A DNA stretch of 64,000 nucleotides from Eledone cirrhosa (Eukaryota). A model generated the notes under the pieces. That model was not told where the DNA came from. It made no database searches and saw only the letters and a list, made by a program, of their open reading frames with translations. The stretch spans positions 267,778,001-267,842,000 of the forward strand of contig OZ024743.1 in NCBI GenBank assembly GCA_964016885.1, given 5' to 3'. Below are positions 3,871 through 64,000 of this stretch, in pieces; within the stretch, counting starts at the first letter, position 1; every line of letters begins with the position of its first letter. The translations under genes were made by a program, and so were the position numbers.

Positions 3871-4050
3871 CATGCACACATATATATATGTGTGCATGTA
3901 TGTATATACATACTAGTGTACGTCTGTATACATATATGTATGTACGTATACATACTTATATTTAAGTAACAGCCGTATAAGAGTGTGAAATGAAATTTCG
4001 TTTCAGTTTTGTCCATTTATATATATATATATACACTGTATATGTATATA

Positions 4051-10132: not shown

Positions 10133-10168
10133 TCTTAACGTTTCGGACGCTAATCCTTCATCAGAAGA
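10133..10168 (-). ncRNA. Minimal hammerhead ribozyme motif (Penelope-type)
   Basis: Minus strand reads TCTT-CTGATGA-A-GGA-ttagcg-TCC-GAAAC-GTT-AAGA, with stem I TCTT/AAGA, stem II GGA/TCC and palindromic AACGTT at helix III. Confidence 0.7.
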
Positions 10169-11474
10169 AAGAATGAGAAATAAGATAGTGTAATATGATA
10201 TGGTGTAAGTATGTCTTGTTAGACATACTTACACCGTAAGTATGTCTAACAAGAGTTTTTATTCCTCATATAGGCAAGTTAATTATTGTATTTGATAGAT
10301 AATTTACTGCATGGATTTGCTTTCTTATAAGAATATGCAAAGTTTTATGAAATGTTCCATTTATATATTTCAAATATGCCTTACATTTTATTTAACTGGT
10401 ACTGTCAAATTTAGTAGTTTAGTAGATTCCGACCGGTGCCAACATATGGGTATATTATGAGCCCACCCAAGCTGTGACGAACAACATACACACTACGAGA
10501 AGATATAGTCTTAGGTAAACCCCGATTAGCATGCAGTGTAAGATAATTCTCTCAATTACCTAAATACTAATGACGCTAGAGATATTAATAATGGATATGT
10601 ACAAGACAAGTATTATATATTAAATGCAAATTTTGAAACGTTACAGAAGAGCAATGAAGATATTTCTAAAATCACATTATCCGCGATAATCAGATCTAGT
10701 AATAAAACTCTGAAAAGCAACATTAAATCCTTTTCCCAATACAGACTTTAAACCCTCTCCGGTTTAATTTTCCTACGTGTTCTGTGGTTACTTTAGCGGT
10801 TTCCATCAGAATTTAGAATAGGTCTCGGATCTGAGAATAATATTCTTGTTGAACTGCTTCCTAATCCAGTATAAAATAAACTGAGTGTTTTCTATCTTTC
10901 CTTTCCACCCACCACAAATTCAAAGGAGCGATGGATGATGTGCCGTGGCGTAATCAAACAATTGTAACAGATGGGTTGGTTATTTTGTGTTCAAAGGATT
11001 GAGAAGTTATTTATAAGAATATATATTAGTGTAGAATATCACGTATGATAAAGAACCAGAAAATCTTAAAATGAACTAGAAACATACGTAATTTAATGCA
11101 AACAGTACATACAAATTACATCTTTACCGATGTTTCTAGTACACAGGTCGTTAATCTTAATCATATGTTGTTCTTTTTAAGCTTGGGAAAATATATTAAA
11201 GAATATATAACATCTGAAATATTTTCAGGTATATCCGTTTGAAATATCTTTTGTCCATCTTAATGTCATTCTAAAATCTCTCTTATAGATTACTTCTGTT
11301 ATTCTCATACGGTAAACGCCCCCGAAACATCAGATCATTTTCCTTACATAAGTTCGTGTGCATAAATGTTGTCCGTCTCGTGTCTTCTTGCTTTCACATT
11401 TTGTTTAACACCTGAAACTTCCCCGCTGTACTAATTGTATTGTTTTTGTCTATAAACACAAACAAATATACACG

Positions 11475-11645: not shown

Positions 11646-12133
<488 letters not shown>

Positions 12134-12729
12134 CAGTGTCTGTGTGTGCGTGTCTGTGTGTGACTGTATGTGTGTGTAAGAATTTATGAGTGCGCGCGTG
12201 TATATATAAACATATACACACAGACATACGGATATGCATGCGGACACGTAACCGCACGCATTGGTAAATGAAATAATTATCTTATGTTGCATATTATATA
12301 ACTATATATATATATATATATATGTATATATAAAAGGATAACAAAATATCGTGATAGGTAATCCAATTAGAGGTTGTGAATACTTCTTATAAGAGGTTTA
12401 GGTAGATGACGAGTTTATGTTTTCACTTATATTCCTATGTAAGTTTATCTTGGAGTAATAAAATTGAAAAAGTGGAGTATAACATGGTCAACAGTACAAA
12501 AAAGGGGATTTATTTGCAGTCTAACTATTGTTTCAATGATAGAGTTTCTAAAAATTGCTGAACACTAAAAGCAGTGCCACTCAAACTTAAATACGATGTT
12601 AACTCTATTAGATCTTCGAAAACTGTAAAAAAATATAAATGTAACCCGCAAATTTACAAATTCAAATTACATCATCAATAATAATATTAATAATAAAGAT
12701 ATAGAGAGAAAAGGAGGAAGAAAGGGAGA

Positions 12730-12771
<42 letters not shown>

Positions 12772-12996
12772 CTACTGTACTTCTGTATATATATATGTAT
12801 GTACGTATACATACATATATTTAAGTAACAGCCGTACTAAGAGTGAGAAATGATATCTCGTTTCATTTTTTCCGTTTATTGTTTTCGGTACCTCGGACGA
12901 TTAACTCACTCGATATACAAATTAGGCTGCTCAGCCGTTAATATGCATAAGGACAGTATATACTTTCAGACGTTCAACCATCTGTCAGGAAGGTAT

Positions 12997-13039
12997 ACGT
13001 TGCTGACGATAGCTAATAAGCTTGAAACTAGTACAACGT
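12997..13039 (+). ncRNA. Minimal hammerhead ribozyme
   Basis: ACGTTG-CTGACGA-T-AGCT-aata-AGCT-T-GAAAC-TA-GTA-CAACGT, with a perfect 6-bp stem I, a 4-bp stem II, palindromic ACTAGT helix III and a GUA cleavage triplet. Confidence 0.8.
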
Positions 13040-13157
13040 TCCTTTGTCAGTGTTGAACAAATGAGCAGCGATGGTTGCTAGACACTGTACGGCTTAATTC
13101 CGGATGTTTGTTTACAAACACACCGAGCATTATAATAAATGTTCGGTGAATCCATAC

Positions 13158-13200
<43 letters not shown>

Positions 13201-13449
13201 CATGTATGTATATATATATTCATACTACTGTACTTCTGTATAAATATATGTATATGCGTATATATACATATATTTAAGTAACAGCCGTACTAAGAGTGAG
13301 AAATGATATTTCGTTTCATTTTTTCCGTTTATTGTTTTCGGTACCTCGGACGATTAACTCACTCGATATGCAAATTAGGCTGCTCAGCCGTTAATATGCA
13401 TAAGGAAAGTATATACTTTCAGACGATCAACCATCTGGCAGGAAGGTAT

Positions 13450-13492
13450 ACGTTGCTGACGATAGCTAATAAGCTTGAAACTAGTATAGCAT
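13450..13492 (+). ncRNA. Minimal hammerhead ribozyme, copy 2
   Basis: Identical core; stem I is ACGTTG/TAGCAT (two G.U pairs, one mismatch). Confidence 0.65.
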
Positions 13493-13610
13493 TCCGTTGT
13501 CAGTGTTGAACAAATGAGCAGCGATGGTTGCTAGACACTGTACGGCTTAATTCCGGATGTTTGTTTACAAACACACCGAGCATTATAATAAATGTTCGGT
13601 GAATCCATAC

Positions 13611-13645
<35 letters not shown>

Positions 13646-13649
13646 CATG

Positions 13650-13692
<43 letters not shown>

Positions 13693-13982
13693 GCACGTAC
13701 ATATATATATATATATATATATATGTGCATGTATGTATATATATATATATATATATATATACATGCACATATATATATATATATATATATGTGCATGTAT
13801 GTATATATATATATATTTATATATATATATACATGCACATATATATATATATATATATATGTACGTATGGATTCACCGAACATTTATTATAATGCTCGGT
13901 GTATTTGTAAACAAACATCCGGAATTAAGCCGTACAGTGTCTAGCAACCATCGCCGCTCATTTGTTCAACACTGACAACGGA

Positions 13983-14025
13983 ACGCTATACTAGTTTCAA
14001 GCTTATTAGCTATCGTCAGCAACGT
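13983..14025 (-). ncRNA. Minimal hammerhead ribozyme, copy 3 (inverted)
   Basis: Identical core on the minus strand; stem I ACGTTG/TAGCGT is fully paired with two G.U pairs. Confidence 0.75.
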
Positions 14026-14524
14026 ATACCTTCCTGACAGATGGTTGAACGTCTGAAAGTATATACTTTCCTTATGCATATTAACGGCTGAGCAGCTTAA
14101 TTTGCATATCGAGTGAGTATGTATATATATATATATATATACATACTACTGTACTTCTGTATACATACTTATAATCAAGTAACAGCTGTACTAAGTGTGA
14201 GAAATGAAATTTCGTTTCATGTTTTCCGATAAATAATAAATAAATAAATAATGTATATCTAATGTGATATAAAATTGTATAAAATGTGAAAAATGAAGAA
14301 TAAAAATAAATACGTAAAAGGAGTAAAAAGAATAAAAATGTGTGAAGAATATTTAAACATATTAAAATTATTAAGAATGGTTTTAGAGAATTGTTGAATT
14401 ATATGGAGAGATAATAAGGTGAAAATATGATAATGTTAAATATATTTATGTGTGTATTGGTTACTTTAATAAATAAATTAATTAATTAGTTTCAAGTTAT
14501 ATTATATGATAAAATAAAACAACA

Positions 14525-14778
14525 CACTTAATAAAATTTGGCAACTCAAAGATGCAAACATGGAATATAAAATCAGCTGGACAAAGATATTGAAAGCAAA
14601 GGTATATCAAATTGATATGTCCCTCTGTGGTCTCTGTAATATGGAACTTTTCCAAATTTTAAATTACAACAAAATCTTCTTAACAGTAAAATTGAAAAAA
14701 CTAGTTTTTGTCGACATAAATCGGCGACTATATATGAGAAATTTTGACCAGCTTAATTCCATCTCATCTATTCCATAA
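14525..14778 (+). pseudogene. Penelope-like element, GIY-YIG endonuclease C-terminal remnant
   Basis: Translates as KIWQLKDANMEYKISWTKILKAKVY...LCGLCNMELFQIL, with a frameshifted CRHK. This matches the IW.LK..Y.I.W..C.LC..E...CRH tail of PLE proteins. Confidence 0.65.
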
Positions 14779-16225
14779 CCCAGATTGTACCACTTGGATC
14801 TATTATGATATCACATTATCAACATCATTATAATTATAATTATAATTGTTTGTCATCATCTATCAAAGAACAACATTAAACCTCTTATATTAACATTCTT
14901 ATTTTATATATCTCTATTTTCCACTTTATATCTTTATATTTCTTTCCCTAAATTTATTTCGTTTCTGTCATTTTATTTTATCATATATAACTTAAAACTA
15001 ATTAATTTATTTATTTATTAAAATAACCAATACACACATACATATATTTAACATTATCTTATTTTCACCTTATTATCTCTCTATATATTTCAACAATTCT
15101 CCAAAACAATCCTTAATAATTTTAATGTTTAAATATTTTTCGCACATTTTTACTCTTTTTACTCCTTTTACGTAATTATTTTTATTCTTCATTTTCACAA
15201 TTTATACCATATTATATCACATTAGATATAACTTCTTTCTTTCTTTCTTTATTTATTTATTTATCAATTTTTATATATTTTTTAATATATTTTTATATAT
15301 ATTTTTCATATATCTACATTTATTTTTATTTACATTTATTCATGTATTAACGTTTATTCATTTATTTGTCCCTCTATTCTTCTTTCTATCCTACGTTATT
15401 TCTACTTATGTTTGTCTCTCCTCTAACTACCAACATCTTCTATATATCTTCCTCTCTTTATATTTCTATCTATATTCATTTCTCCTTTCTCTTCTTCTTT
15501 CTCTTTTTCTTTTTCTTTTTCTTTTTCCTTCTTCTACTTTCTCCTCCCTTTCCTTTCTTTCTTTACTATATATATATCTCCATTTCTTCCCCCTTTTCTC
15601 TCTATATCTTTATTATTAATATTATTATTGATGATGTAATTTGAATTTGTAAATTTGCCGGTTACATATATAGTTTTTTAACAGTTTCCGAAGATCTAAT
15701 AAAGTTAACATCGTATTTAAAATTGAGTGGTACCGCTTTTAGTATTGTTCAGCAATTTTTAGACAACTCTATCAGTGAAACAAGTGTTAGACTAAAAATA
15801 AATCCCCTTTTTTTACTGTTGACCATGTTATTCTCCACTTTTTCAATTTTACATATATATATATATATATATAATATATTCGAACATAATGCATGTGACA
15901 TAATCTGTTGGCAATTCATATGATTTCCTATTATTCAGTTTCCATGCAGGAATGGAGTTCAAGGGTTGCACTGGTCCTATAATAGTGTGGTCATCGTTGA
16001 TGTTCCTTTAATCACGCTGCGTCAATTCGACATGTGTATATATGACTAGAAATAAAGAAAGAAATTCATAGCAATGAATGCAAAACAAATGGAATAAGAT
16101 AGAATAAACAATTATATATATATATAAAAACATCCATAATAGTGTATTATTATCGAACATTACCCATAACGTGCTATCAAATAGAGACATCATTAATGTG
16201 CCTTATTCTCTATCTACTATACACA

Positions 16226-16292: not shown

Positions 16293-18891
16293 CCAACAAG
16301 TGACATAGGCATGCTGATAGAAATAATCAAGCAAAAAGTGTCGGCCAAAGCTGCTCGTATAAGGCGCTTTGAAAAACGATCTAGATTCTATAAGGACAAT
16401 AATATGTTCTAAACCAACCAAAGAAACTTCTACAGAAAAATTGGTAAGTCAACAATAACTGCTAAATCAATACCACCCAAGGAGGAAGTGCAAGAATTCT
16501 GGGAAAAGATCTGGGCCGAAGAAAAAGTTCATAATATACATGCCCCATGGATAGACAGACAAATGAAAGATATAGCTTACCTTGAGGTACAAATATGGGA
16601 AAATATAACAGTTGAACAGTTTCGTTTGGCTCTAAGATAAACCAGCAAATGGAAATCCCCAGGAAAAGACAAAATACAAAATGTTTGGATAAATGCCTTC
16701 ACAGAGTCTCATGAGCTGTTAGCCCAACTTTACAATGAAATAGTTAAGGAGCCAGAAAAGATACCATCATGGCTAGTTAACGGCATTATATTCCTGCTTC
16801 CGAAGAATGATGAGACAAACAATCCCAAAAATTACAGACCGATAACTTGCTTGACCACAATGTATAAAATGTTAACATCAGTCCTAACTGAATATACATA
16901 TGACCACCTGATAACAAATGATCTATTTCCCATTGAGCAGAAGGGTGTATAGAGGCTCATATAGCTGTAAGGATCAGCTTTTGGTTAACAAAATGATACT
17001 GGAAGATTGTCATAATAGACACAAAAATCTATCAATTGCTTGGATAGATTATAAAAAAGCATTCGATAGTTTGCCACACAGTTAGATTGAAAAATGTTTA
17101 GAGATTTTCAAAATATCCCCCGTTGTCAGGAGGTTTTTGTCATTCAGTATGAAGACATGGAAAACGACACTCCTTTTGAATAGTGAAAAGAAATCACTGG
17201 AAGCTGTAGAAGTTAATATTAATTGTGGAATTTTTCAGGGTGACTCTTTATCACCGCTTTTATTCTGCATCGCACTTATACCATTAAGTAAAATGCTCAA
17301 TGAAACAAAACATGGATATAAAGTCTATGACAAAACCATTAATCACTTGTTCTACATGGATGACCTGAAACTATTTGCAAAAAATGATGAACAATTGCAA
17401 GGGCTATTACCACTGTGGTGCAGTTCAGTGATGACATTAAAATGGAGTTTGGACTAGATAAATGCGCCAAAGCTACGTTCACCAGAGGAAAGCTGCTGAA
17501 AAGTTCAGACATTAATCTTGATCGGCGGAATGTGATAAGAGAACTTGATCAAGAGGAAACTTACAAATATCTAGGTGTTTGTGAAGGAGACGGAATCAAG
17601 CACTCGACAATGAGGGAAAGGATAAAGAAGGAATGTTACCACAGAGTAAGAGTAATCTTAAGAACGGAATTGAATGCAAGGAATAGGATCGATGCCATAA
17701 ACACGCTTGCCATACCAGTTGTAACCTGCAGTTACAATGTCAAGCACAGAGATCCGTAGGCTCGATACAAAAATTCGAAAATTCTTAACTATACACAGAA
17801 TGCATCACCCTAAGGTAGATACAAATAGAATATGTCTCCCTAGGAAAGAAGGAGGACGCGGGTTAATCCAGATAGACATTGCGTTGAAAACTGCAACAAT
17901 GGGATTATCTACATATCTAAGGGAATCACATGATTGGATGATCAAACTCGTTTTGAAACACGAAAGCATCAAAAGATCATACTCCATTACAAAGGATGCA
18001 CAAAGATACAGTAATGGACTATACATTTCAGAAGTCCCATTTACTGCTGAAATGGAAAACACAGAAAAAGCAAAGCAGGTAAAAGTAACTGCAAAGAAAG
18101 AACTGCTACAGAAACTGGCTAAGAAATGGCAAGAAAAGCCTCTGTATGGAAAATACCCAGAACGAGCTAACAATCCTGATGTTGACAACATTTTAACCCG
18201 TCAGTGGTTGGCATCCTCTGGACTGAAATCGGAGACTGAAGGACTGATTATATCAGCACAAGATCAGTGTCTGCCAACAAAAAATTACCAAGCCAACATA
18301 ATAAAAAATGGATGCAGCCCATTATGCCGTGTATGTAAAAAACAACCAGAGACCATTGACTATATAATTTCAATGTGCAGTCCTATAGCTCCAACCGAAT
18401 ACCTAAAGAGGCATGACAGAGCTGCACAATACATACATTGGATAATGTGTAAGCATTTTGACCTGCCCCATCAAAAGAATTGGTGGGAGCATCAACCACC
18501 TCCCATCCTTGAAAAAGATCACATCTCAATCTTGTGGAACTTTAGCATCCAAACCGACCGAAACATAGATGCAAATAGACCTGATATAATATTGAAGGAC
18601 TTTAAAAAGAGGGTATGCCTGCTAATTGATATGTCCGTTCCAATAGACAAGAATGTATCTATAAAAACATTTGAAAAATTGAGCAAGTATAAGGACCTGG
18701 AGATAGAAATTGGAAAAATGTGGAAATTGAGAACTAAAACAATACCAGTGGTTGTAGGCGCTCTAGGAATGATACCTAAGGGGTCTAATGATTACTTATC
18801 GCAAATCCCAGGAAACCCGCGCATAGGAGAAATACAAAAGATAGTACTAATGGGAACTGCCCATATACTAAGGAATATTCTGTCAATATAA
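16288..18891 (+). pseudogene. Disrupted RT/RLE ORF of the Dong-like element
   Basis: In-frame stops and frameshifts near 16950, 17420 and 17745; the final 384 codons are intact. Confidence 0.88.
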
Positions 18892-36348: not shown

Positions 36349-36552
36349 CGAAGAAGATAGACGTGTTTTTGTTTCGCTCCTGCATTTTGTCGGAATTTAT
36401 CGTGAGAAGCGGTAGGTCTCTTTAAGTAATGTGTTATTTGTTATGTTTAACCCCTCGCCTGGGCCTGCAGACGTTGGGTAAAATAAATTTTGCCTCTTGT
36501 TGGGACGAAATTTAATAGTTATAAGTTTTCGATAAAAAGTCGTTTAGTGACA

Positions 36553-38385
36553 ATGGACGCCATTAATACGACGTATGCCCCCCCCCCCCCCCCCCAGGAA
36601 AGTGATAGAGAGAAGGTAGCAGCACAACGCTGTAAGCCTTTCCTCCTCATTCCCGCAAAAGACACCACGGAATCAAAAGAAAACATTGTGGAAATGGCTG
36701 AAAACCCCAAAAGTTACAATTACACAAACAAGAACAACAACGACAATAACAACACAACCAACAATAGCAACAATGACAATAACAACACAACCAACAACAC
36801 CAATAATGACAACACCAGCAAAGGAAAAAAGCAAGCCAACACGAATAACAACAACAACAATGATAACAACACGAAAGAAAACGGACCCAAAGGTGGAGTC
36901 TCCTTCGCACAGACAGTCCGAGAAACGCAGATATACAAGGCACTGGACATCTCGAATGCCAAGAAATTGCTGAAAGAAGCAAGGAATTGTGTAACTTTCG
37001 GGGAAGGTGGGGAATTCACAATTACCTCCCCCGAAGAAATTATAAGGGACACAGTCCTCAGGACAGTAATGTTTAGGACAGTTTCGAACACGACTAGGAA
37101 ACCGCCTCAATTGTCCCAAAGCGAATTTGAGCTGGTCCTAAGTAGTGCCTGGAAGGATATCGCTTTCATACAGAAAGGGAAACTGTATGGAAGCATATCT
37201 GTTTTAATGCAAGATGAATTGGAGGAACGGAAATATTCTGTGTCGCCAATTGTATCCAAAGCATACATCTTTTTCCCAACATATTTGGGGAAAAGAACTC
37301 AAAAGATAAGAATCTCGGGCATCAGGCCAAATGCGAGCATTTGGTGGGTGCTAACGGGATTCTTAGAAGATGAGGACTCAATCCTTTCGATAGGCGAATC
37401 CGTCGGAGGAGTATTCGGCGGCAATAGCCTTGAAGTTCGGGACCAAATGAGACCAGAACGGATAGCAATAATACCGCAGCGTGTGTCCCTGGATGGAGTT
37501 GCCTACATAAACATTTCTGTTGAGGGCAGGGGGCCTTCATGCTAGCACTGTTCAAGAAGTGGTCACCTGAGGGCTTCCTGTCCCCTTTTAAAAGCCCCCC
37601 CCCCCTCCATACACACACAAAGACGCTTCTGCCCACGCCACACACAACAACACAACCACCACCACAACAACAACACAAGATACTGTCACACACAACCCAT
37701 CCCCACCTAAAACAAATACAAAAGCAACCACAACAAAACCCCCAAATATACCCCTCCCCAACAACACGAACGAGGACCCCTTATCAACGTCACCCAGTGA
37801 CGACGAGGGAGAACCCTTTCAACCTGTAAAAGAAAGAAATGAAGGCACCACAATAAGAAAATTGCAACAAACACACAACCACCAGCACAAACAAAAAAAC
37901 CAACCCCTCCCGAAAACATAACACATACTACAAAACGCAAACACACACAAGAACAACAAACAAACACAACACAACAAAAACAGTATACATATATCAACAC
38001 AAACAACAAAACACTTGTGCAAACAATAGACAAAGACCCTTCGGTGGAAACCGAAGGGAAAATATTCACCAACGCGGCCACTAAACCGCATTTAAAAATG
38101 ATGAGGGTCCCAAGGGACACCAACGCAATGCTCAAACAGAACTTTCCCGATGACGTGGGGAACCCCTGTACTAGACCTAGCAACCGCGGCCTCTTGAAAT
38201 GTTTCCCCAGCCCCACGCCAGACACCCTCCCCCACCAAACACCCCCACCCAACCACACACTGATGTCCCCACCACATCCCAAACCACCACCCCACCAAAC
38301 AACCCCGTCGACACACCTATGGAAATTGTGCAGCCTGTTCCCAGGAGAAGGACAGGTAGGTGTCTTGTCCTTTTTCTCCACTCTA
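36553..38385 (+). pseudogene. ORF1 (gag-like) with CCHC knuckle, disrupted
   Basis: SFAQTV motif and an RRM-like KIRISGI region. The knuckle C*HCSRSGHLRASCP at about 37540 contains a premature stop, and the tail is P/T/N-rich and frameshifted. Confidence 0.75.
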
Positions 38386-38402
38386 AACTCTTCACCACCA
38401 AC

Positions 38403-40990
38403 ATGGCTGTTATAAGCGTTGGATGTTTAAATGTGCGCGGCCTGGGGATGTCCTGGAAGCAGGACAAACTCTTAAATGACCTCAGGTCGCACAGAATCGA
38501 TGTGATAGCTATTTGCGAGTCCAGGATCAGCAGCGAGCACCAACTGGCCCCCATCTTCGACGACTTTGAGATCTATGCATCTCTCTGTCAGCCGGGGGAT
38601 GGGGGCGGAGTGGTCGTTCCGCTGCGTAAACACCTGGGCCTCGCAACACGGAAGGTACTCCTGGACCCGGAGGGTCGACTGGTGGTTCGAGACGTAGGCA
38701 GTAGTGAAGGGGGAGCCTTCAGGCTGGTGGCAGCATATGCCCCATCTGGTACACCGCGACCGGACTTCTTCCAACGCCTAGAGACTTTTCTGGGAACGTC
38801 TCGCTCCTTGCTTTTAGTGGGGGACTGGAATGGTATCCTGGATGCACGTTGGGACTATGTAGGGGCATGTCCCGGTAGAGGGGGGTGTAACAGCCTCAAA
38901 CGGTTAATCGGCTGATTTGATCTGGCCGATAGATATCGACTAGATTTTCCGACTGTGCCACTGTGGACGTGGACTAATCGTAGCGGGACATCTAGGTCGT
39001 ACCTAGATAGGTTCCTAGTTAGAAATAAGGATAGGGACATATTAAACTGTCCACGAATGTTCATGGTTGACTATTCGGATCAGAAGTTGGTGAGCGGAGT
39101 GGTCAACCTTGATAGAACCCATAGACAAGGACCCGGTTACTGGAAGCAAAACTTGTCCTTACCGACAAACAAAGCTTACAGTAAGCGGGTTAGCACTCTA
39201 GTTAAGTAGCGGTTGACGGGGGGAATTGTCAACAACAGGTGGCAGGCTCTCTCAAGAGAGAAAATAGAATAGAATCGATAGGTTTTAGTCAGGAATTAGC
39301 ATCAGATAGGAATAGAACTGATAGATAGAGTAGAAGAGGCGATTAGGAGGGGAAGCGTGGCCGGCGTGCTGGCGTCAAGAACGGCCCTACACCAGTTCTT
39401 TGACGCGAAGCACGAGGGCTGTATTGTCAGGAGTAAAATACGTGCTCTGGGTAACGAGGGAGCCAAAGCTGTTAGCTGGGCCCCAGTGACAGAGGTAAAA
39501 AGTGGAAACAAGTCCACGATTCGGTCTTTGAAGGACAAGGATGGACGCGTAATCCTTGAACATTAGCGGATGTGTGCGGCCTTTCAATAGGAGAGGCAGC
39601 GGGCCGGGTGGGGCCATGGATTTCGGTCCATACCTTGACGGTCTGCCGCGGCTTAGGACAGGGATGCGAAGTCCTGCGAAAGGCCGATTTCAGCCGCTGA
39701 AATAGGGGAAGCGCTGAGCCTATGCGGCAAACGCAAATCATCCGGTCTCGATGGTCTACCATACGAACTTTATGTAGCGATGACGGACTTGTTCTCCGAT
39801 CTCCTCGAGGCGGTCTACTGCTACTGGCAACAGAACGGGAGAATTCCCACATCTGTGACCAAGGGCGTAGTCACGCTGGTGAGGAAGGACGAGAACAAGT
39901 GGGATGACATAGATAACTTCAGGCCAATAACTCTGCTAAACACAGCGTTAAAGATTTTGGCGAAGGTGTTAGCGAAGAGGTTGGTGGTCCCGTCCAGGTC
40001 CATACACGATAACCTCCACCTCATGCGATACATCGTAGAGAGGGTAGGGAACGAACATGGCTTTGGTGGGGCCCTGATCAACTTGGATGAATCTAGGACG
40101 TTCGATAGGGTCGACCATCGGTACCTGGATGCAGTACTCGCGGGGTTAGGGTTCGGACCCGTTTTCAGGGGCTGGATTGCTGCAATGCACAGCAGCAACA
40201 CCTGCTCGAGGGTCAATGTGAACGGCTACATCTCTGAGCTGTTTTAAATCGCTCGATCCATCCGACAGAGATATCCTCTCTCCTCCCTTCTGTAAAAGCT
40301 GGCTCTCGAACCACTACTGCGAAAGTTGGAGCTGTTGCAGGGAATCCTCTAGGAACCGGGATTGAGGAAAGCGGTGTCGGCCTACGCCGATGACATAACA
40401 TTAATGGTGGAGTGCGCCTCGGATATCGGGCAGATCGGCTCCTTACTGGAGGAATACGAAAGTTTTACAGGAGTCAAGATGAACCGGGACAAGTCCGTCG
40501 GTTTGCAACTCGGAACGTGGAGGGGCAAACCGATGCCTTCTGACAGCGTCGTCAGACGCTGGACGGAGGGAGCGGTGGGTGAAGCTGCTCGGGGTCTGGT
40601 TCGGACCGGACCTCCAGGTGGAGAAAAGCTGGGACGAGGTAACGCGCAGGGTGTTTGCACTCGACCAGAAGTGGGCCGAGTGCAAACTATTCCTGAAAGG
40701 TCAAGCGGAGGTGGCGAACACTTATATAGCGTCCGTCAACTACTACCGCTTGACCGTCGTGCCTTGCCAAGCGAAAACGCTCGCCAAAGTGGAGCGCGCG
40801 CTCTTCCGATTCCTTTGGAAGAGGCGGGCTCCTTTGGTGAGAAGACGAGCCTTTCCTGGACTCGTCTCACTCACCGAGCTGCAATCCTGGGTCAAGCAAA
40901 GACCGAGAAAAGTGGGTGACTGGCACATTGGATGTGCCCAGGCGCTCACGGCCCTCTGGCAAGCGGATCCGGAAATCAGTGGAGACTCAA
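38403..40990 (+). pseudogene. ORF2 (AP endonuclease + reverse transcriptase), disrupted
   Basis: APE motifs MAVISVGCLNVRGL, ICES, AYAP, GDWN, SYLDRF and SDQK. RT motifs FRPITLLN, LINLDESRTFDRVDH, AYADDIT and KLLGVWF. Multiple stops and frameshifts. Confidence 0.9.
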
Positions 40991-41028
40991 CAAATAAACG
41001 TTTGATTTACCGCGATAGAAGTCGTCAA

Positions 41029-41190
41029 GGTTTCTACTTTTGGCACAAGGCGTGCAATATCCCAGTGTATTACTGGTGCTTTATTTTATCGACCCCGTAA
41101 GGATGAAAGGCAAAATTAACCTCAAAAGCATTTGAACTCAGAATGTAAAGGGCCATAATTATATACTGCAAAGTCTGACGCTCTACCGAT
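41029..41190 (-). mobile_element. SINE family A
   Basis: Reverse complement of the family consensus. Confidence 0.78.
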
Positions 41191-54539: not shown

Positions 54540-55777
54540 AAGTATTCTGATGAAGAAGAGGAGATGGATGCTGAGTACTTGGATTACCTGCCTGGGGTAC
54601 CAGAAAATGTTCCTCACTTCCCAAAGCAAAAAGAAGTCAATGACTTGGTCAGGGATATGGGTCTGATCAAGACCAATGCAGAGCTATTTGTCTCCAGGAT
54701 GAAGCAGTGGAACTTGGTCAAGGAGGAAGTGCAGGTGACAAGTCAGAGAAGTCGACACGAATCTTTCTCAGGCTTTTACACTCTTAGCGATGGCCTCTGC
54801 TTCAGCCAAAGGTGCCTGGGCTGTTTGACGTTATTGGGGTGCCGTTTGTGCTCAAGGATTGGCGGCTATTTATAGACAGCTCCACCACAAGTTTGATGGC
54901 TGTCCTCCTCCACAATGGAAACAAGTTCCCGACACTTCCCCTAGCTCATTCAGTCTGCCTGAAGGAAGATTACTACAGTGTGAAAGTCCTCTTGGAAGCT
55001 CTGCAATACAACCAGTACAATTGGGAAATCATTGGAGACTTCAAGATGGTGGCTTTCCTGCTTGGACTCCAAGGAGGCTTTATCAAATTCCAATGCTTCC
55101 TCTGCCTTTGGGACAGCAGAGCCACCTCTGACCACTACAAAAGAAAGAACTGGGAGCAGCGAACAGAATTTGTAGTTGGGACCCGGAACGTCATGTGGGA
55201 GGCATTGGTTGATCCCAGGATTGTGCTCATGCCGACACAGCACATTAAGTTCGGGTTGATGAAGCTGTTTGTGAAGGCTCTCAACCAAGAATCAGCCGCT
55301 TTTAAGTACCTTCTTGAGTTCTTCCCCAAGTTATCTGAGGCCAAAATCAAAGGTGGAATGTTTGTTGGACCTCAGATAAAGAAGGTGTTTGAGTCTACCG
55401 AGTTCTCCAATAAGCTTAATATGATTGAGAGAACAGCATGGAACTGTTTCAAGGAAGTTGTTAAGGGCTTCCTGGGCAACTACAGAGCTGAAAACTACCA
55501 GCAACTGGTGCAGGATCTGATAAAGGCTTTTGGCGCCATGGGATGCAGGATGTCGCTTAAACTCCATATGCTGGACGCTCACCTGGAAAAATTCAAGGAC
55601 AATATGGACGCCTACTCAGAAGAAAAAGGCGAATGATTCCACTATGATGTGAAAGAGATAGAGCGGAGGTACCAGGGCCACTACAATGAAAAAATAATGG
55701 GGTACTATATCTGGGGACTAGTGCGGTAATGCGACCTGGACTACAACCGCAAATCCAAGAAATCCAGTCAATTCTGA
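54540..55777 (+). pseudogene. DDE transposase remnant (Chapaev3-like)
   Basis: WRLFIDSS...AVLLHNGN, GDFKMV..LLGLQGG..K..CFLCLWDSRA, HIKFGLMK, GMFVGPQI, MSLKLH.L..H and SEEKGE*FH...RYQG. Frameshift near 54810, premature stops, N-terminus missing. Confidence 0.85.
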
Positions 55778-56900: not shown

Positions 56901-57197
56901 TTTTTATTGCTGCTGTTGCTATCGTTGTTGTTGATCATTTTCGCCTTGAAATGTTGATGCTGCATTTGTTGCAAATGTTGTTGATGTTGATATTGTTGCT
57001 GTCGTTGTGTTGTTGTTCTTGATAATGACGTTTTTATTCTACCTGTGGTTGTAGTGGTAGTTTCATTGTTGTTGTTATTATTCTTATTGTTGTTGTCACC
57101 ATTCTGTTTGTTGTTGCAGCTGGTTTTTGTTGATAGTTTTGTTAGTTTTTCTGCTGTTGTTGATGTACTTGTTGCTGTTGTTGTTGTTGATGATTAT

Positions 57198-60100
57198 CGT
57201 GTCGTTCTCTTAGGTGGTGGTGTTGTTGTTGTTCTTGCTAATAGTGTCGTTCTCTTTGCTGGTGGAGTTGGTGTTGTTGTTGCTAATAGTGCCGTTCCCT
57301 TTGGTGGTGGTGGTGGTGGTGTTGTTGTTGCTAATAGTGTCGTTTTCTTTGGTGGTGGTGTTGTTGTTGTTGTTGCTAATAGTGTCGTTCTCTTTGGTGG
57401 TGGTGTTGTTGTTGTTGTTGCTAATAGTGTCGTTCTCTTTGGTGGTGGTGGTGGTGTTGTTGTTGCTAATAGTGTCGTTCTCTTTGGTGGTGGTGTTGTT
57501 GTTGTTGTTGCTAATAGTGTCGTTCTCTTTGGTGGTGGTGTTGTTGTTGTTGTTGCTAATATAGTCGTTCTCTTTGGTGGTGGTGGTGGTGTTGTTGTTG
57601 CTAATAGTGTCGTTCTCTTTGGTGGTGGTGTTGTTGTTGTTGTTGCTAATAGTGTCGTTCTCTTTGGTGGTGGTGGTGGTGGTGTTGTTGTTGCTAATAG
57701 TGTCGTTCTCTTTGGTGGTGGTGGTGGTGTTGTTGTTGCTAATAGTGTCGTTCTCTTTGGTGGCGGTGGTGGTGTTGTTGTTGCTAATAGTGTCGTTCTC
57801 TTTGGTGGTGGTGTTGTTGTTGTTGTTGCTAATAGTGTCGTTCTCTTTGGTGGTGGTGGTGTTGTTGTTGCTAATAGTGTCGTTCTCTTTGGTGGTGGTG
57901 TTGTTGTTGTTGTTGCTAATAGTGTCGTTCTCTTTGGTGGTGGTGGTGGTGTTGTTGTTGCTAATAGTGTCGTTCTCTTTGGTGGTGGTGGTGGTGTTGT
58001 TGTTGTTGTTGCTAATAGTGTCGTTCTCTATGGTGGTGGTGGTGTTGTTGTTGTTGCTAATAGTGTCGTTCTCTTTGGTGGTGGTGGTGTTGTTGTTGTT
58101 GCTAATAGTGTCGTTCTCTTTGGTGGTGGTGGTGGTGTTGTTGTTGTTGTTGCTAATAGTGTCGTTCTCTTTGGTGGTGGTGGTGTTGTTGTTGTTGCTA
58201 ATAGTGTCGTTCTCTTTGGTGGTGGTGGTGTTGTTGTTGTTGCTAATAGTGTCGTTCTCTTTGGTGGTGGTGGTGGTGTTGTTGTTGTTGTTGCTAATAG
58301 TGTCGTTCTCTTTGGTGGTGGTGGTGTTGTTGTTGTTGCTAATAGTGTCGTTCTCTTTGGTGGTGGTGGTGGTGTTGTTGTTGTTGTTGTTGCTAATAGT
58401 GTCGTTCTCTTTGGTGGTGGTGGTGTTGTTGTTGCTAATAGTGTCGTTCTCTTTGGTGGTGGTGGTGTTGTTGTTGCTAATAGTGTCGTTCTCTTTGGTG
58501 GTGGTGTTGTTGGTGTTGTTGCTAATAGTGTCGTTCTCTTTGGTGGTGTTGTTGTTGTTGTTGCTAATAGTGTCGTTCTCTTTGGTGGTGGTGTTGTTGT
58601 TGTTGCTAATAGTGTCGTTCTCTTTGGTGGTGGTGGTGGTGTTGTTGTTGCTAATAGTGTCGTTCTCTTTGGTGGTGGTGTTGTTGTTGTTGTTGTTGCT
58701 AATAGTGTCGTTTTCTTTGGTGGTGGTGTTGTTGTTGTTGCTAATAGTGTCCTTCTCTTTGGTAGTGGTGGTGGTGTTGTTGTTGTTGCTAATAGTGTCG
58801 TTCTCTTTGGTGGTGGTGTTGTTGTTGTTGCTAATAGTGTCGTTCTCTTTGGTGGTGGTGGTGGTGTTGTTGTTGCTAATAGTGTCGTTCTCTTTGGTGG
58901 TGGTGTTGTTGTTGTTGTTGCTAATAGTGTCGTTCTCTTTGGTGGTGGTGTTGTTGTTGTTGCTAATAGTGTCGTTCTCTTTGGTGGTGGTGGTGGTGTT
59001 GTTGCTAATAGTGTCGTTCTCTTTGGTGGTGGTGGTGTTGGTGTTGTTGTTGTTGCTAATAGTGTCGTTCTCTTTGGTGGTGGTGTTGTTGTTGTTGTTG
59101 CTAATAGTGTCGTTCTCTTTGGTGGTGCTGTTGTTGTTGTTGTTGTTGCTAATAGTGTCGTTCTCTTTGGTGGTGGTGTTGTTGTTGTTGTTGCTAATAG
59201 TGTCGTTCTCTTTGGTGGTGTTGTTGTTGTTGTTGCTAATAGTGTCGTTCTCTTTGGTGGTGGTGTTGTTGTTGTTGTTGCTAATAGTGTCGTTCTCTTT
59301 GGTGGTGGTGTTGTTGTTGTTGTTGCTAATAGTGTCGTTCACTTTGGTGGTGGTGTTGTTGTTGTTGTTGCTAATAGTGTCGTTCTCTTTGGTGGTGTTG
59401 TTGTTGTTGTTGTTGCTAATAGTGTCGTTCTCTTTGGTGGTGTTGGTGGTGTTGTTGTTGCTAATAGTGTCGTTCTCTTTGATGGTGGTGTTGTTGTTGT
59501 TGTTGCTAATAGTGTCGTTCTCTTTGGTGGTGGTGGTGGTGTTGTTGCTAATAGTGTCGTTCTCTTTGGTGGTGGTGGTGTTGGTGTTGTTGTTGTTGCT
59601 AATAGTGTCGTTCTCTTTGGTGGTGGTGTTGTTGTTGTTGTTGCTAATAGTGTCGTTCTCTTTGGTGGTGTTGTTGTTGTTGTTGTTGCTAATAGTGTCG
59701 TTCTCTTTGGTGGTGGTGTTGTTGTTGTTGTTGCTAATAGTGTCGTTCTCTTTGGTGGTGTTGTTGTTGTTGTTGCTAATAGTGTCGTTCTCTTTGGTGG
59801 TGGTGTTGTTGTTGTTGTTGCTAATAGTGTCGTTCTCTTTGGTGGTGGTGTTGTTGTTGTTGTTGCTAATAGTGTCGTTCACTTTGGTGGTGGTGTTGTT
59901 GTTGTTGTTGCTAATAGTGTCGTTCTCTTTGGTGGTGTTGTTGTTGTTGTTGTTGCTAATAGTGTCGTTCTCTTTGGTGGTGTTGGTGGTGTTGTTGTTG
60001 CTAATAGTGTCGTTCTCTTTGGTGGTGGTGTTGTTGTTGTTGTTGCTAATAGTGTCGTTCTCTTTGGTGGTGGTGTTGTTGTTGTTGTTGCTAATAGTGT

Positions 60101-63100
60101 CGTTCTCTTTGGTGGTGGTGTTGTTGTTGTTGTTGCTAATAGTGTCGTTCTCTTTGGTGGTGTTGTTGTTGTTGTTGTTGCTAATAGTGTCGTTCTCTTT
60201 GGTGGTGGTGTTGTTGTTGTTGTTGCTAATAGTGTCGTTCTCTTTGGTGGTGGTGTTGTTGTTGTTGTTGCTAATAGTGTCGTTCTCTTTGGTGGTGGTG
60301 TTGTTGTTGTTGCTAATAGTGTCGTTCACTTTGGTGGTGGTGTTGTTGTTGTTGTTGTTAATAGTGTCGTTCTCTTTGGTGGTGGTGTTGTTGTTGTTGT
60401 TGCTAATAGTGTCGTTCTCTTTGGTGGTGTTGTTGTTGTTGTTGTTGCTAATAGTGTCGTTCTCTTTGGTGGTGGTGTTGTTGTTGTTGTTGCTAATAGT
60501 GTCGTTCTCTTTGGTGGTGGTGTTGTTGTTGTTGTTGCTAATAGTGTCGTTCTCTTTGGTGGTGGTGTTGTTGTTGTTGTTGTTGCTAATAGTGTCGTTC
60601 TCTTTGGTGGTGGTGTTGTTGTTGTTGTTGTTGCTAATAGTGTCGTTCTCTTTGGTGGTGGTGTTGTTGTTGTTGTTGCTAATAGTGTCGTTCTCTTTGG
60701 TGGTGGTGTTGTTGTTGTTGTTGCTAATAGTGTCGTTCTCTTTGGTGGTGTTGTTGTTGTTGTTGTTTCTAATAGTGTCGTTCTCGTTGGTGGTGTTGTT
60801 GTTGTTGTTGCAAATAGTGTCGTTCTCTTTGGTGGTGTTGTTGTTGTTGTTGTTGCTAATAGTGTCGTTCTCTTTGGTGGTGGTGTTGTTGTTGTTGTTG
60901 TTGCTAATAGTGTCGTTCTCTTTGGTGGTGTTGTTGTTGTTGTTGCTAATAGTGTCGTTCTCTTTGGTGGTGGTGTTGTTGATGTTGTTGCTAATAGTGT
61001 CGTTCTCTTTGGTGGTTGTGTTGTTGTTGTTGTTGCTAATAGTGTCGTTCTCTTTGGTGGTGTTGTTGTTGTTGTTGTTGCTAATAGTGTCGTTCTCTTT
61101 GGTGGTGGTGTTGTTGTTGTTGTTGCTAATAGTGTCGTTCTCTTTGGTGGTGGTGTTGTTGTTGTTGTTGCTAATAGTGTCGTTCTCTTTGGTGGTGTTG
61201 TTGTTGTTGTTGCTAATAGTGTTGTTCTCTTTGGTGGTGTTGTTGTTGTTGTTGCTAATAGTGTCGTTCTCTTTGGTGGTGGTGTTGTTGTTGTTGCTAA
61301 TAGTGTCGTTCTCTTTGGTGGTGGTGTTGTTGTTGTTGTTGCTAATAGTGTCGTACTCTTTGGTGGTGGTGGTGTTGTTGTTGTTGCTAATAGTGTCGTT
61401 CTCTTTGGTGGTGGTTTTGTTGTTGTTGTTGCTAATAGTGTCGTACTCTTTGGTGGTGGTGTTGTTGTTGTTGTTGCTAATAGTGTCGTACTCTTTGGTG
61501 GTGGTGTTGTTGTTGTTGTTGCTAATAGTGTCGTTCTCTTTGGTGGTGGTGTTGTTGTTGTTGTTGTTGCTAATAGTGTCGTTCTCTTTGGTGGTGGTAT
61601 TGTTGTTGTTGTTGCTAATAGTGTCGTTCTCTTTGGTGGTGTTGTTGTTGTTGTTGTTGCTAATAGTGTCGTACTCTTTGGTGGTGGTGTTGTTGTTGTT
61701 GTTGCTAATAGTGTCGTTCTCTTTGGTGGTGGTGTTGTTGTTGTTGTTGCTAATAGTGTCGTACTCTTTGGTGGTGGTGTTGTTGTTGTTGTTGCTAATA
61801 GTGTCGTACTCTTTGGTGGTTTTGTTGTTGTTGTTGTTGCTAATAGTGTCGTTCTCTTTGGTGGTGGTGTTGTTGTTGTTGTTGCTATTAGTGTCGTTCT
61901 CTTTGGTGGTGGTGGTGTTGTTGTTGTTGCTAATAGTGTCGTTCTCTTTGGTGGTGGTGTTGTTGTTGTTGTTGCTAATAGTGTCGTACTCTTTGGTGGT
62001 GGTGTTGTTGTTGTTGTTGCTAATAGTGTCGTTCTCTTTGGTGGTGGTGTTGCTGTTGTTGTTGCTAATAGTGTCGTACTCTTTGGTGGTGGTGTTGTTG
62101 TTGTTGTTGCTAATGGTGTCGTTCTCTTTGGTGGTGTTGTTGTTGTTGTTGTTGCTAATAGTGGCGTTCTCTTTGGTGGTGGTGGTGTTGTTGTTGTTGT
62201 TGTTGCTAATAGTGTCGTTCTCTTTGGTGGTGGTGTTGTTGTTGTTGTTGCTATTAGTGTCGTTCTCTTTGGTGGTGGTGGTGTTGTTGTTGTTGCTAAT
62301 AGTGTCGTTCTCTTTGGTGGTGGTGTTGTTGTTGTTGTTGCTAATAGTGTCGTACTCTTTGGTGGTGGTGTTGTTGTTGTTGCTAATAGTGTCGTTCTCT
62401 TTGGTGGTGGTGTTGTTGTTGTTGTTGCTAATAGTGTCGTACTCTTTGGTGGTGGTGTTGTTGTTGTTGTTGCTAATAGTGTCGTACTCTTTGGTGGTGG
62501 TGTTGTTGTTGTTGTTGCTAATAGTGTCGTTCTCTTTGGTGGTGGTGTTGTTGTTGTTGTTGCTATTAGTGTCGTTCTCTTTGGTGGTGGTGTTGTTGTT
62601 GTTGTTGCTAATAGTGTCGTTCTCTTGGTGGTGGTGTTGTTGTTGTTGTTGCTAATAGTGTCGTACTCTTTGGTGGTGGTGTTGTTGTTGTTGTTGCTAA
62701 TAGTGTCGTACTCTTTGGTGGTGGTGTTGTTGTTGTTGTTGCTAATAGTGTCGTTCTCTTTGGTGGTGGTGTTGTTGTTGTTGTTGCTAATAGTGTCGTA
62801 CTCTTTGGTGGTGGTGTTGTTGTTGTTGTTGCTAATAGTGTCGTTCTCTTTGGTGGTGGTGTTGTTGTTGTTGTTGCTAATAGTGTCGTACTCTTTGGTG
62901 GTGGTGTTGTTGTTGTTGTTGCTAATAGTGTCGTTCTCTTTGGTGGTGGTGTTGTTGTTGTTGTTGCTAATAGTGTCGTACTCTTTGGTGGTGGTGTTGT
63001 TGTTGTTGTTGCTAATTGTGTCGTTCTCTTTGGTGGTGTTGTTGTTGTTGCTAATAGTGTCGTACTCTTTGGTGGTGGTGTTGTTGTTGTTGTTGTTCCT

Positions 63101-64000
63101 AATAGTGTCGTTCTCTTTGGTGGTGGTGGTGTTGTTGTTGTTGTTGCTAATAGTGTCGTTCTCTTTGGTGGTGGTGGTGTTGTTGTTGTTGTTGCTAATA
63201 GTGTCGTTCTCTTTGGTGGTGGTGGTGTTGTTGTTGTTGTTGCTAATAGTGTCGTTCTGTTTGGTGGTGGTGTTGTTGTTGTTGTTGCTAATAGTGTCGT
63301 TCTCTTTGGTGGTGTTGTTGTTGTTGTTGTTGCTAATAGTGTCGTTCTCTTGGTGGTGGTGTGTTGTTGTTGTTGCTAATAGTGTCGTTCTCTTTGGTGG
63401 TGGTGGTGTTGTTGTTGCTAATAGTGTCGTTTCTTTGGTGGTGGTGTTGTTGTTGTTGTTGATAATAGTGTCGTTCTCTTTGGTGGTGGTGGTGTTGTTG
63501 TTGTTGCTAATAGTGTCGTTCTCTTTGGTGGTGGTGGTGTTGTTGTTGCTAATAGTGTCGTTCCCTTTGGTGGTGGTGTTGTTGTTGTTGTTGCTAATAG
63601 TGTCGTTCTCTGTGGTGGTGTTGTTGTTGTTGTTGTTGCTAATAGTGTCGTTCTCTTTGGTGGTGTTGTTGTTGTTGTTGTTGCTAATAGTGTCGTTCTC
63701 TTTGGTGGTGTTGTTGTTGTTGTTGTTGCTAATAGTGTCGTTCTCTTTGGTGGTGTTGTTGTTGTTGTTGTTGCTAATAGTGTCGTTCTCTTTGGTGGTG
63801 TTGTTGTTGTTGTTGTTGCTAATAGTGTCGTTCTCTTTGGTGGTGTTGTTGTTGTTGTTGTTGCTAATAGTGTCGTTCTCTTTGGTGGTGGTGTTGTTGT
63901 TGTTGTTGCTAATAGTGTCGTTCTCTTTGGTGGTGGTGGCGTTGTTGTTGTTGTTGCTAATAGTGTCGTTCTCTTTGGTGGTGGTGGTGTTGTTGTTGTT
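57198..64000. repeat. Minisatellite: constant CTAATAGTGTCGTTCTCTTTG core plus variable (GTG)m(TTG)n, units about 42-54 bp
   Basis: Roughly 150 units; continues past the window end. Confidence 0.97.

Follow-up and report, generated by a model that had tools for sequence, protein, structure and literature searches.

A rearranged copy of a hammerhead-bearing, non-coding repeat family in Eledone cirrhosa, probably moved by a Penelope-like enzyme

The locus and its surroundings

The stretch of DNA analysed here (64,000 nucleotides, G000:C4:267778001-267842000, referred to below as the window) is rich in AT and microsatellites and contains a group of non-coding repeat units with hammerhead ribozyme motifs. 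The group lies inside a (TA)n tract of the inverted 3' arm that belongs to an older Penelope-like element (PLE). The units, the host element around them and one separate insertion are as follows.

3907..4020, plus strand: separate ribozyme-less insertion, unit positions 1-114 with the long end, into (TA)n
12459..12741, minus strand: left part of the inverted 3' arm of the host PLE, 91% identity to 15567-15851
12733..12765: (TA)n tract, left junction, within the inverted 3' arm of the older PLE
12766..13218, plus strand: unit copy 1, 453 bp, subfamily A, with the TA-rich linker expanded
12997..13039, plus strand: hammerhead 1, core from 13003; helix I ACGTTG/CAACGT with 6 Watson-Crick pairs, U.U base of helix II, palindromic ACTAGT helix III, predicted cut after 13033
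13219..13613, plus strand: unit copy 2, positions 1-395, followed by linker
13450..13492, plus strand: hammerhead 2, core intact, with two G.U pairs and a C-A mismatch that weaken helix I, predicted cut after 13486
13614..13861: fold-back array of the unit linker, GTGCATGTATG / CATGCAC between (TA)n runs
13862..14118, minus strand: unit copy 3, 257 bp, 5'-truncated, unit positions 139-395
13983..14025, minus strand: hammerhead 3, core intact, helix I with two G.U pairs, predicted cut after 13989
14119..14229, plus strand: short ribozyme-less arm facing copy 3 head-to-head, made up of linker and unit positions 1 to about 110
14229..14544, minus strand: right part of the inverted 3' arm of the host PLE, 87% identity to 14944-15256
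14518..14753, plus strand: broken C-terminal endonuclease end of the older host PLE (context, not evidence of a helper)

The tandem arrangement of 453-bp units described in the initial annotation was recovered by TRF, with a period of 453 bp, 2.1 copies and 94% matches over 12733-13677. The units had also been described as lacking open reading frames, and the longest ATG-initiated ORF in 12766-13660 indeed has 68 codons. Copies 1, 2 and 3 have the same 32-nt core (GCTGACGA-helix II-GAAACTAGTA), in agreement with the invariant hammerhead core reported for them. The picture of three units in tandem and inverted arrangement needs correction, since two are in tandem and one is inverted, the latter being only a 257-bp 5'-truncated piece. 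The annotated extent to 14230 takes in a fourth, ribozyme-less fragment at 14138-14228, which is the unit-like part of the short arm; this arm carries an internal deletion and terminates near the 'long' 3' end of the family. The fold-back array forms the centre of a palindrome with 381-nt arms, at 13737/13738. A related unit start had been placed at about 3940-4015 as a sign of a dispersed family, and this insertion shows 90-94% identity to unit positions 1-114.

The host PLE remnant itself has a head-to-head form (12300-12741, minus strand; 14229-14544, minus strand; 14518-15855, plus strand), and its two arms stop at different points, about 130 nt apart, before the (TA)n. A first look gave 34,999 candidates for this abundant PLE family; among 19 other copies, one (L127) likewise contains a unit insertion. 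Other features of the window include a near-perfect palindrome at 11646-12035, with 194-nt arms and a 2-nt spacer; the arm belongs to a dispersed repeat, of which other loci contain a 99.5% copy and inverted pairs. At least 151 copies of a GT-rich 45-bp unit stand in tandem at 57176-64000, and the array continues past the window end. By eye, we take an open frame at 17725-18891 (plus strand) for the C-terminal part of a non-LTR retroelement, 36487-41100 (plus strand) for a broken L1/Tx1-type element, and 54788-55636 (plus strand) for a transposase-like frame.

The hammerhead fold and the repeat family

The hammerhead of the unit has a 6-bp helix I, a helix II of four positions closed by a 6-nt loop, and a palindromic helix III of 1-2 bp. 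The base of helix II is a U.U mismatch in place of the usual G10.1-C11.1 pair in all 75 copies compared, a feature absent from the initial annotation. This layout corresponds to the 'canonical' metazoan type I form of PMC4209133 and not to its 'minimal' PLE form, for which that source gives an extra base between 9 and 10.1, a G10.1-C11.1 pair and a long helix II (7-8 bp in the Schistosoma type). The earlier designation of the motif as a minimal type I hammerhead is therefore not retained. Covariance models, which the initial annotation had proposed as a check, did not recover the motif: in Rfam, no hammerhead family reached the gathering threshold over the whole window, and the 140 matches obtained down to E=10 within 12700-14300 were mostly microRNA models on TA repeats, with no hammerhead among them.

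The family is large and dispersed. The exact core had 9,756 matches genome-wide (3.0 Gb) and the reversed pattern none, which excludes chance; a degenerate core had 26,456, again with none for the reversed control. The copy-number check suggested earlier thus yields more than 26,000 hammerhead motifs, consistent with the expected dispersal. Unit spacing measured 23 times in other loci ranged from 420 to 511, with 19 of the 23 values at 420-442, so that the annotated length of 453, correct for this locus, lies at the long end of the family range, the (TA)n linker being expanded here. Four subfamilies, 3-11% apart, were distinguished, and copies diverge by 2.8-4.0% from their own subfamily consensus. 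A homologous sister family has units of 466-469 bp and is identical to the first at 284 of 419 columns (68%). A pattern capturing it gave 10,815 matches, mostly of the sister type among the 100 matches listed. The sister ribozyme has the G10.1-C11.1 pair, and its units form arrays of up to about 30 (C1:30831600-30840900, L212 and L213; C1:5738100-5752700, L208 and L209), including one two-armed insertion with zero divergence.

For the analysis of conservation, anchors flanking the ribozyme were used to pick copies, which avoided preselecting its interior; of the 80 obtained, the 75 of equal length were kept. Helix I pair 3 is paired in 75 of 75 (G.U 34, A-U 25, U.G 16), whereas 2,000 shuffles gave 49.9 on average and 61 at most; this covariation represents a few ancestral changes counted many times rather than 75 independent ones. 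Position 7, loop II, helix I and distal sites have variants common to at least four copies; none of the 11 core sites has one. As to the excess core conservation across copies that the initial annotation had called for, rare changes amount to 0.007 per core site versus 0.015 per distal site, and the test at the subfamily level is not significant, where none of 16 constrained sites is among the 38 of 324 sites that vary between subfamilies (p 0.13). Per-copy conservation of the core is a weak test in principle, because inserted copies decay neutrally.

The comparison between families is more informative. The core and ACTAGT are unchanged between the family and its sister, whereas the sequences of helices I and II differ and their pairing is preserved; helix II, for instance, passes from TAGC/GCTT to GTTG/CAAC and GATG/CATC. 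In an alignment of eight rows from three families, 8 of 12 pairs change on both sides, against 0-1 in slid controls. This between-family covariation is stronger evidence than that within the family. Since covariation of the helices between subfamilies and between families goes with an unchanged core, we regard the hammerhead fold as real and selected, and cleavage as predicted from it.

The same reasoning does not extend to the window copies among themselves. Stem I differences between copies 1 and 3 had been described as keeping G.U pairing, and they do pair as stated, but these are private mutations, and we rejected them as evidence of selection. The G.U pairs of copy 3 consist of one private change and the family consensus; its C-to-T change next to the cut site occurs in none of 127 other subfamily-A pieces. 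The C-A mismatch in helix I of copy 2 was absent from the initial annotation.

The between-family covariation also bears on the view that the unit is simply a DNA-level repeat, either a satellite or a foldback element, that has no RNA intermediate and whose hammerhead-like motif is accidental or a fossil. In its favour, the unit is rich in (TA)n and hairpins, and this locus and some arrays have been rearranged at the DNA level; the retention of the core with covarying helices across families only 68% identical argues for selection on an RNA fold instead, and we consider this explanation very improbable.

Constrained folding favoured the double hammerhead over two monomers in three of three pairs, with gains of 5.0 kcal/mol for the window pair, 4.2 for a family pair and 13.5 for a sister pair. 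On folding energies, then, the palindromic helix III would favour dimer cleavage, as had been proposed. The active fold was never the minimum-energy fold among those computed; the double fold lay 15.3 kcal/mol above the minimum in the window pair, 8.1 in the family pair and 1.8 in the young sister pair. According to PMC7229834, axolotl HHR_Amex2, which has a U.U helix II base, cleaves weakly alone and better as a dimer. The unit folds better than its shuffles, with z -4.8 once the TA linker is removed (0 of 100 shuffles as good); the z of -7.7 obtained for the circular fold is inflated by that linker. Modelled as a circle, the unit closes helix I across the junction. From these models we infer ribozyme activity.

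Insertion ends and the mobilising enzyme

Insertion ends were examined in 174 arms longer than 120 bp from 118 loci on C1, mostly selected by their ribozyme and so biased against very short arms. The 3' ends of 139 of the 174 arms fall at unit positions 45-62 (68 arms) or 98-116 (71 arms), with 35 elsewhere. There are thus two fixed 3' ends, about 56 nt apart, whereas 5' ends are scattered. TA repeats directly follow 125 of 178 ends. Head-to-head arm pairs numbered 71 over all loci, and in 46 of the 48 with both ends classifiable one end was short and the other long (p 8e-12). A rough pattern match in the sister family found the two types of end together, on opposite strands, in 9 of 16 loci, and 30 loci of an ORF-bearing PLE family showed 10 short, 17 long and 3 uncalled ends, into (TA)n. 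These fixed 3' ends, the scattered 5' truncation and the one-short-one-long rule fit reverse transcription, and count further against a repeat spread at the DNA level.

The arm ends match the published PLE 'tail' signature. PLEs with an inverted 5'-truncated copy, a one-sided tail and a (TA)n bias are described in PMC8557442. In PMC11167929, purified PLE protein is reported to cut and extend both strands of AT-rich DNA, with reverse transcription beginning at two internal RNA sites that define the tail. Because the insertions carry this two-start-site signature, their sequence gives strong grounds to infer mobilisation by a PLE enzyme. The initial proposal of a dispersed, non-coding, hammerhead-bearing family inserted into (TA)n and mobilised in trans by a PLE is supported, and the end signature strengthens it. 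That each strand is primed at a different site in one event is our own reading of the 46 of 48 pairs.

Comparison with endonuclease-positive PLEs (PMC4209133, PMC8557442, PMC11167929) extends the likeness to 5' truncation, partial tandems, the inverted 5'-truncated copy, a tail restricted to one end, insertion into (TA)n or AT-rich DNA and a hammerhead in the repeated end. In contrast to them as described there, the unit has no ORF, its tail measures about 56 nt versus 30-40 in PLEs and lies about 150-210 nt upstream of the ribozyme, and its hammerhead is canonical where theirs is minimal.

Given that every insertion hallmark is PLE-like and that PLE pLTRs carry type I hammerheads (PMC4209133), the unit might be the pseudo-LTR or 3' end of an autonomous PLE that was not sampled, its copies being 5'-truncated insertions; the roughly 150 loci sampled are well under 1% of copies. 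Several observations speak against this. The form of the hammerhead does not fit, as noted above, and 37 of the 174 arms span at least three pieces and run on into another unit, not into an ORF. For 86 free 5' ends, three PLE protein queries together with an all-against-all comparison revealed no junction in sense with a PLE ORF and no upstream coding stretch in common; the end expected of an autonomous PLE, with an RT and GIY-YIG ORF leading into the repeat in sense, was absent from the sampled loci. The closest case, L095, is separated from the PLE ORF upstream of it by about 600 bp, with a (TA)n tract in between. The 3' regions of three PLE families (19, 30 and 30 loci, and the window's own element) contain no colinear unit sequence, nested insertions aside. 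We therefore hold this origin to be unlikely.

The three families are the host family of the window, a young long-frame family and a third one, and the autonomous PLE with the same pLTR that the initial annotation envisaged was not found among them. The young family (L221-L250; e.g., G000:C7:5919131-5920708) has about 95% protein identity and many open frames of 713 codons; it has no sequence in common with the unit. Its 3' end bears a hammerhead-like motif with an atypical first core box, CAGAAGA. The PLE assignment is based on motifs and on an Atlas feature search, in which neighbours of the ORF-bearing family carry HTH_animal, RVT_1 and GIY-YIG; Pfam gave nothing significant on four PLE peptides. 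The unit is thus likely non-autonomous, with no helper PLE found among the three families.

A head-to-head junction between a unit and a truncated PLE (L057/L058) was considered as a co-insertion and rejected, as none of 28 other copies of that PLE has it. In one case, a large inverted duplication (L220, G000:C1:18484000-18493999), a unit is joined head to head with a truncated PLE endonuclease region.

Retrozyme class, template and history of the locus

On sequence-level definition the unit is a non-LTR retrozyme, with cleavage and circles predicted here. As described for these elements (PMC7229834; bioRxiv 10.64898/2026.07.22.740005), it is a non-coding tandem unit of a few hundred bp and low GC with one canonical type I hammerhead per unit, it occurs as thousands of dispersed monomers, dimers and multimers, and PLEs are present in the same genome. 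The length given for them, about 150-450 bp and up to about 970, head-to-tail, accommodates 453 here and 420-511 elsewhere, and the layout is non-coding and without LTRs, the arms being tandem units with fixed 3' and variable 5' ends. Two traits recall axolotl ribozymes of PMC7229834, namely the 1-bp helix III with a palindromic tetraloop of HHR_Amex1 and the U.U helix II base of HHR_Amex2. We found no mention in these sources of head-to-head arms or of two fixed 3' ends for retrozymes. In Xenopus, 24 of 57 retrozyme families are reported to match Repbase, nearly all as PLEs (bioRxiv 10.64898/2026.07.22.740005), whereas no matching PLE was found here. Non-autonomous Chlamys PLEs, such as MRC1 of Chlamydomonas, are likewise non-coding, with PLE-type insertions and multicopy head-to-tail arrays; as presented in PMC8557442, they generally share their 3' end with an autonomous partner and most Chlamys have no canonical hammerheads, whereas the unit shows no partner similarity and conserves its hammerhead.

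Titles and abstracts of the literature on octopus or cephalopod hammerheads, retrozymes and Penelope elements gave no description of this family, which may already be catalogued, for example in supplements or repeat databases. The non-LTR retrozyme class and its PLE origin are already published, and this family is a further member; what is added is the PLE signature on a non-coding ribozyme repeat.

The locus is probably best explained as a decayed and rearranged copy of this high-copy non-LTR retrozyme family, moved by a PLE enzyme. In such a scheme a tandem source locus would be transcribed, and two neighbouring hammerheads would pair via the ACUAGU palindrome and then cut, releasing a unit-length RNA (about 420-510 nt) that would likely be closed into a circle. 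A PLE protein would nick both strands of a (TA)n tract, and reverse transcription would start inside the RNA at two sites, one per strand. Each cDNA would run backwards through the ribozyme site, for part of a turn to many turns, before the two cDNA ends were joined head to head.

The nature of the template is less certain. Among the 47 5' ends downstream of the ribozyme start, two fall at the cut site, against 3.9 expected, so a pile-up of ends at the cleavage site is absent; the template was therefore continuous there, either as a circle or as an uncut multimer. The second of these, in which the same PLE-mobilised non-autonomous element is copied from an uncut linear multimer transcribed from tandem arrays, is an alternative that we judge rather unlikely. 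The hammerhead would then be kept for trimming read-through transcripts, RNA stability or protein-assisted cleavage, and long arrays would be rebuilt by DNA recombination. Such a template would agree with the lack of a pile-up and with arms that read through intact ribozymes. It would also agree with the report that PLE ribozyme mutants insert normally in vitro, where uncut RNA can serve as template and RNA that has not been processed is the main substrate (PMC11167929), and with a ribozyme whose helix II base is weak and whose helix III has 1-2 bp. One of nine predicted Xenopus retrozyme dimers cleaved (bioRxiv 10.64898/2026.07.22.740005). Two other long sister arrays, of 30 and 14 units (C1:5.74 Mb and 14.04 Mb), have variants common to non-adjacent units in a recombination-type pattern, which indicates that DNA-level expansion also occurs.

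The circle nevertheless appears to be the more probable template. A young sister insertion comprises 12 and 6 full units on two arms with zero differences, which fits rolling-circle copying, and 18 identical full units are more simply obtained from a circle than from a linear RNA. 5' truncation would shorten each linear round, so that multimers would need regenerating. The unit folds far better than its shuffles and its modelled circle closes helix I, and circles have been demonstrated for coral, mussel and axolotl retrozymes, one of them with the same U.U mismatch (PMC7229834). Counting against the proposed cycle, only 17 of the 174 arms contain at least two ribozymes, and 132 contain one.

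The window locus itself seems to be one ageing, decayed and locally rearranged copy of the family. A 34-nt haplotype with window-specific changes has two matches assembly-wide, both in the window tandem copies; 12897 and 13101 are examples of positions with window-private variants. Seven rare variants are common to the window copies, whereas just 5 of 42 other multi-piece arms have three or more rare variants in common. Copies 2 and 3 are convergent, an unusual geometry across loci (5 convergent neighbours versus the 71 head-to-head). The locus likely goes back to a single insertion that afterwards underwent duplication and fold-back as DNA; the alternative to local rearrangement is a source locus missing from the assembly. 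The duplication and the fold-back, at the self-complementary linker, would have produced the tandem-plus-convergent layout, with private mutations weakening ribozymes 2 and 3. Variants shared among the three copies are incongruent, so they allow no unique reconstruction. An assembly artefact is an unlikely cause of the palindrome, given that copies 2 and 3 differ at 6 of 257 sites.

The initial annotation had seen in the tandem pair a source of a circle of about 453 nt. This is not upheld: the haplotype occurs only here, helix I of the second site is weakened, and the double fold lies some 15 kcal/mol above the minimum, versus 1.8 in the young sister pair. With its haplotype found nowhere else and private helix I mutations in copies 2 and 3, the locus is probably not a source of circles.

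A bolder reading can be offered tentatively, and we would put it below an even chance. A still-active retrozyme lineage without detectable sequence similarity to any PLE of its genome may hijack a PLE protein through RNA structure surrounding the two internal start sites, with a single circular RNA as template and double-ended rolling-circle copying giving insertions of up to about 10 kb. If so, the layout of the arms would testify directly, at the genome level, to the helper class of animal retrozymes and to their circular template, and the tail hairpin of about 60 nt would be a portable PLE-recruiting signal. The earlier case for the mover of animal retrozymes, as published, was built on co-occurrence and pLTR similarity; here the insertions themselves carry the signature. 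The locus is ordinary, and the family is the useful part. Together the two homologous families number in the tens of thousands; their ribozymes covary, and they include at least one multimer with zero divergence. They offer ready substrates for asking whether a circle is copied by PLE reverse transcriptase, and what keeps the hammerhead conserved if insertion does not need cleavage.

Further hammerhead-bearing repeats were encountered. A third tandem family with a 310-bp period (L064:1-1250), seen in 17 loci, has a hammerhead that again shows U.U at the base of helix II and the UAACAA loop, combined with an ACGCGU palindrome. At least two more families have a long helix II (CTGAAGAGGTCACAG...) nearer to the minimal PLE type and lie at the flanks of L133, L228 and L212, and in L065, L074 and L099. 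Finally, an unrelated hammerhead-like motif lies on the minus strand of the window at about 10140-10175 (CTGATGA, short helix II, GAAACGTTA, palindromic helix III), and its family also occurs in L069 and L084.
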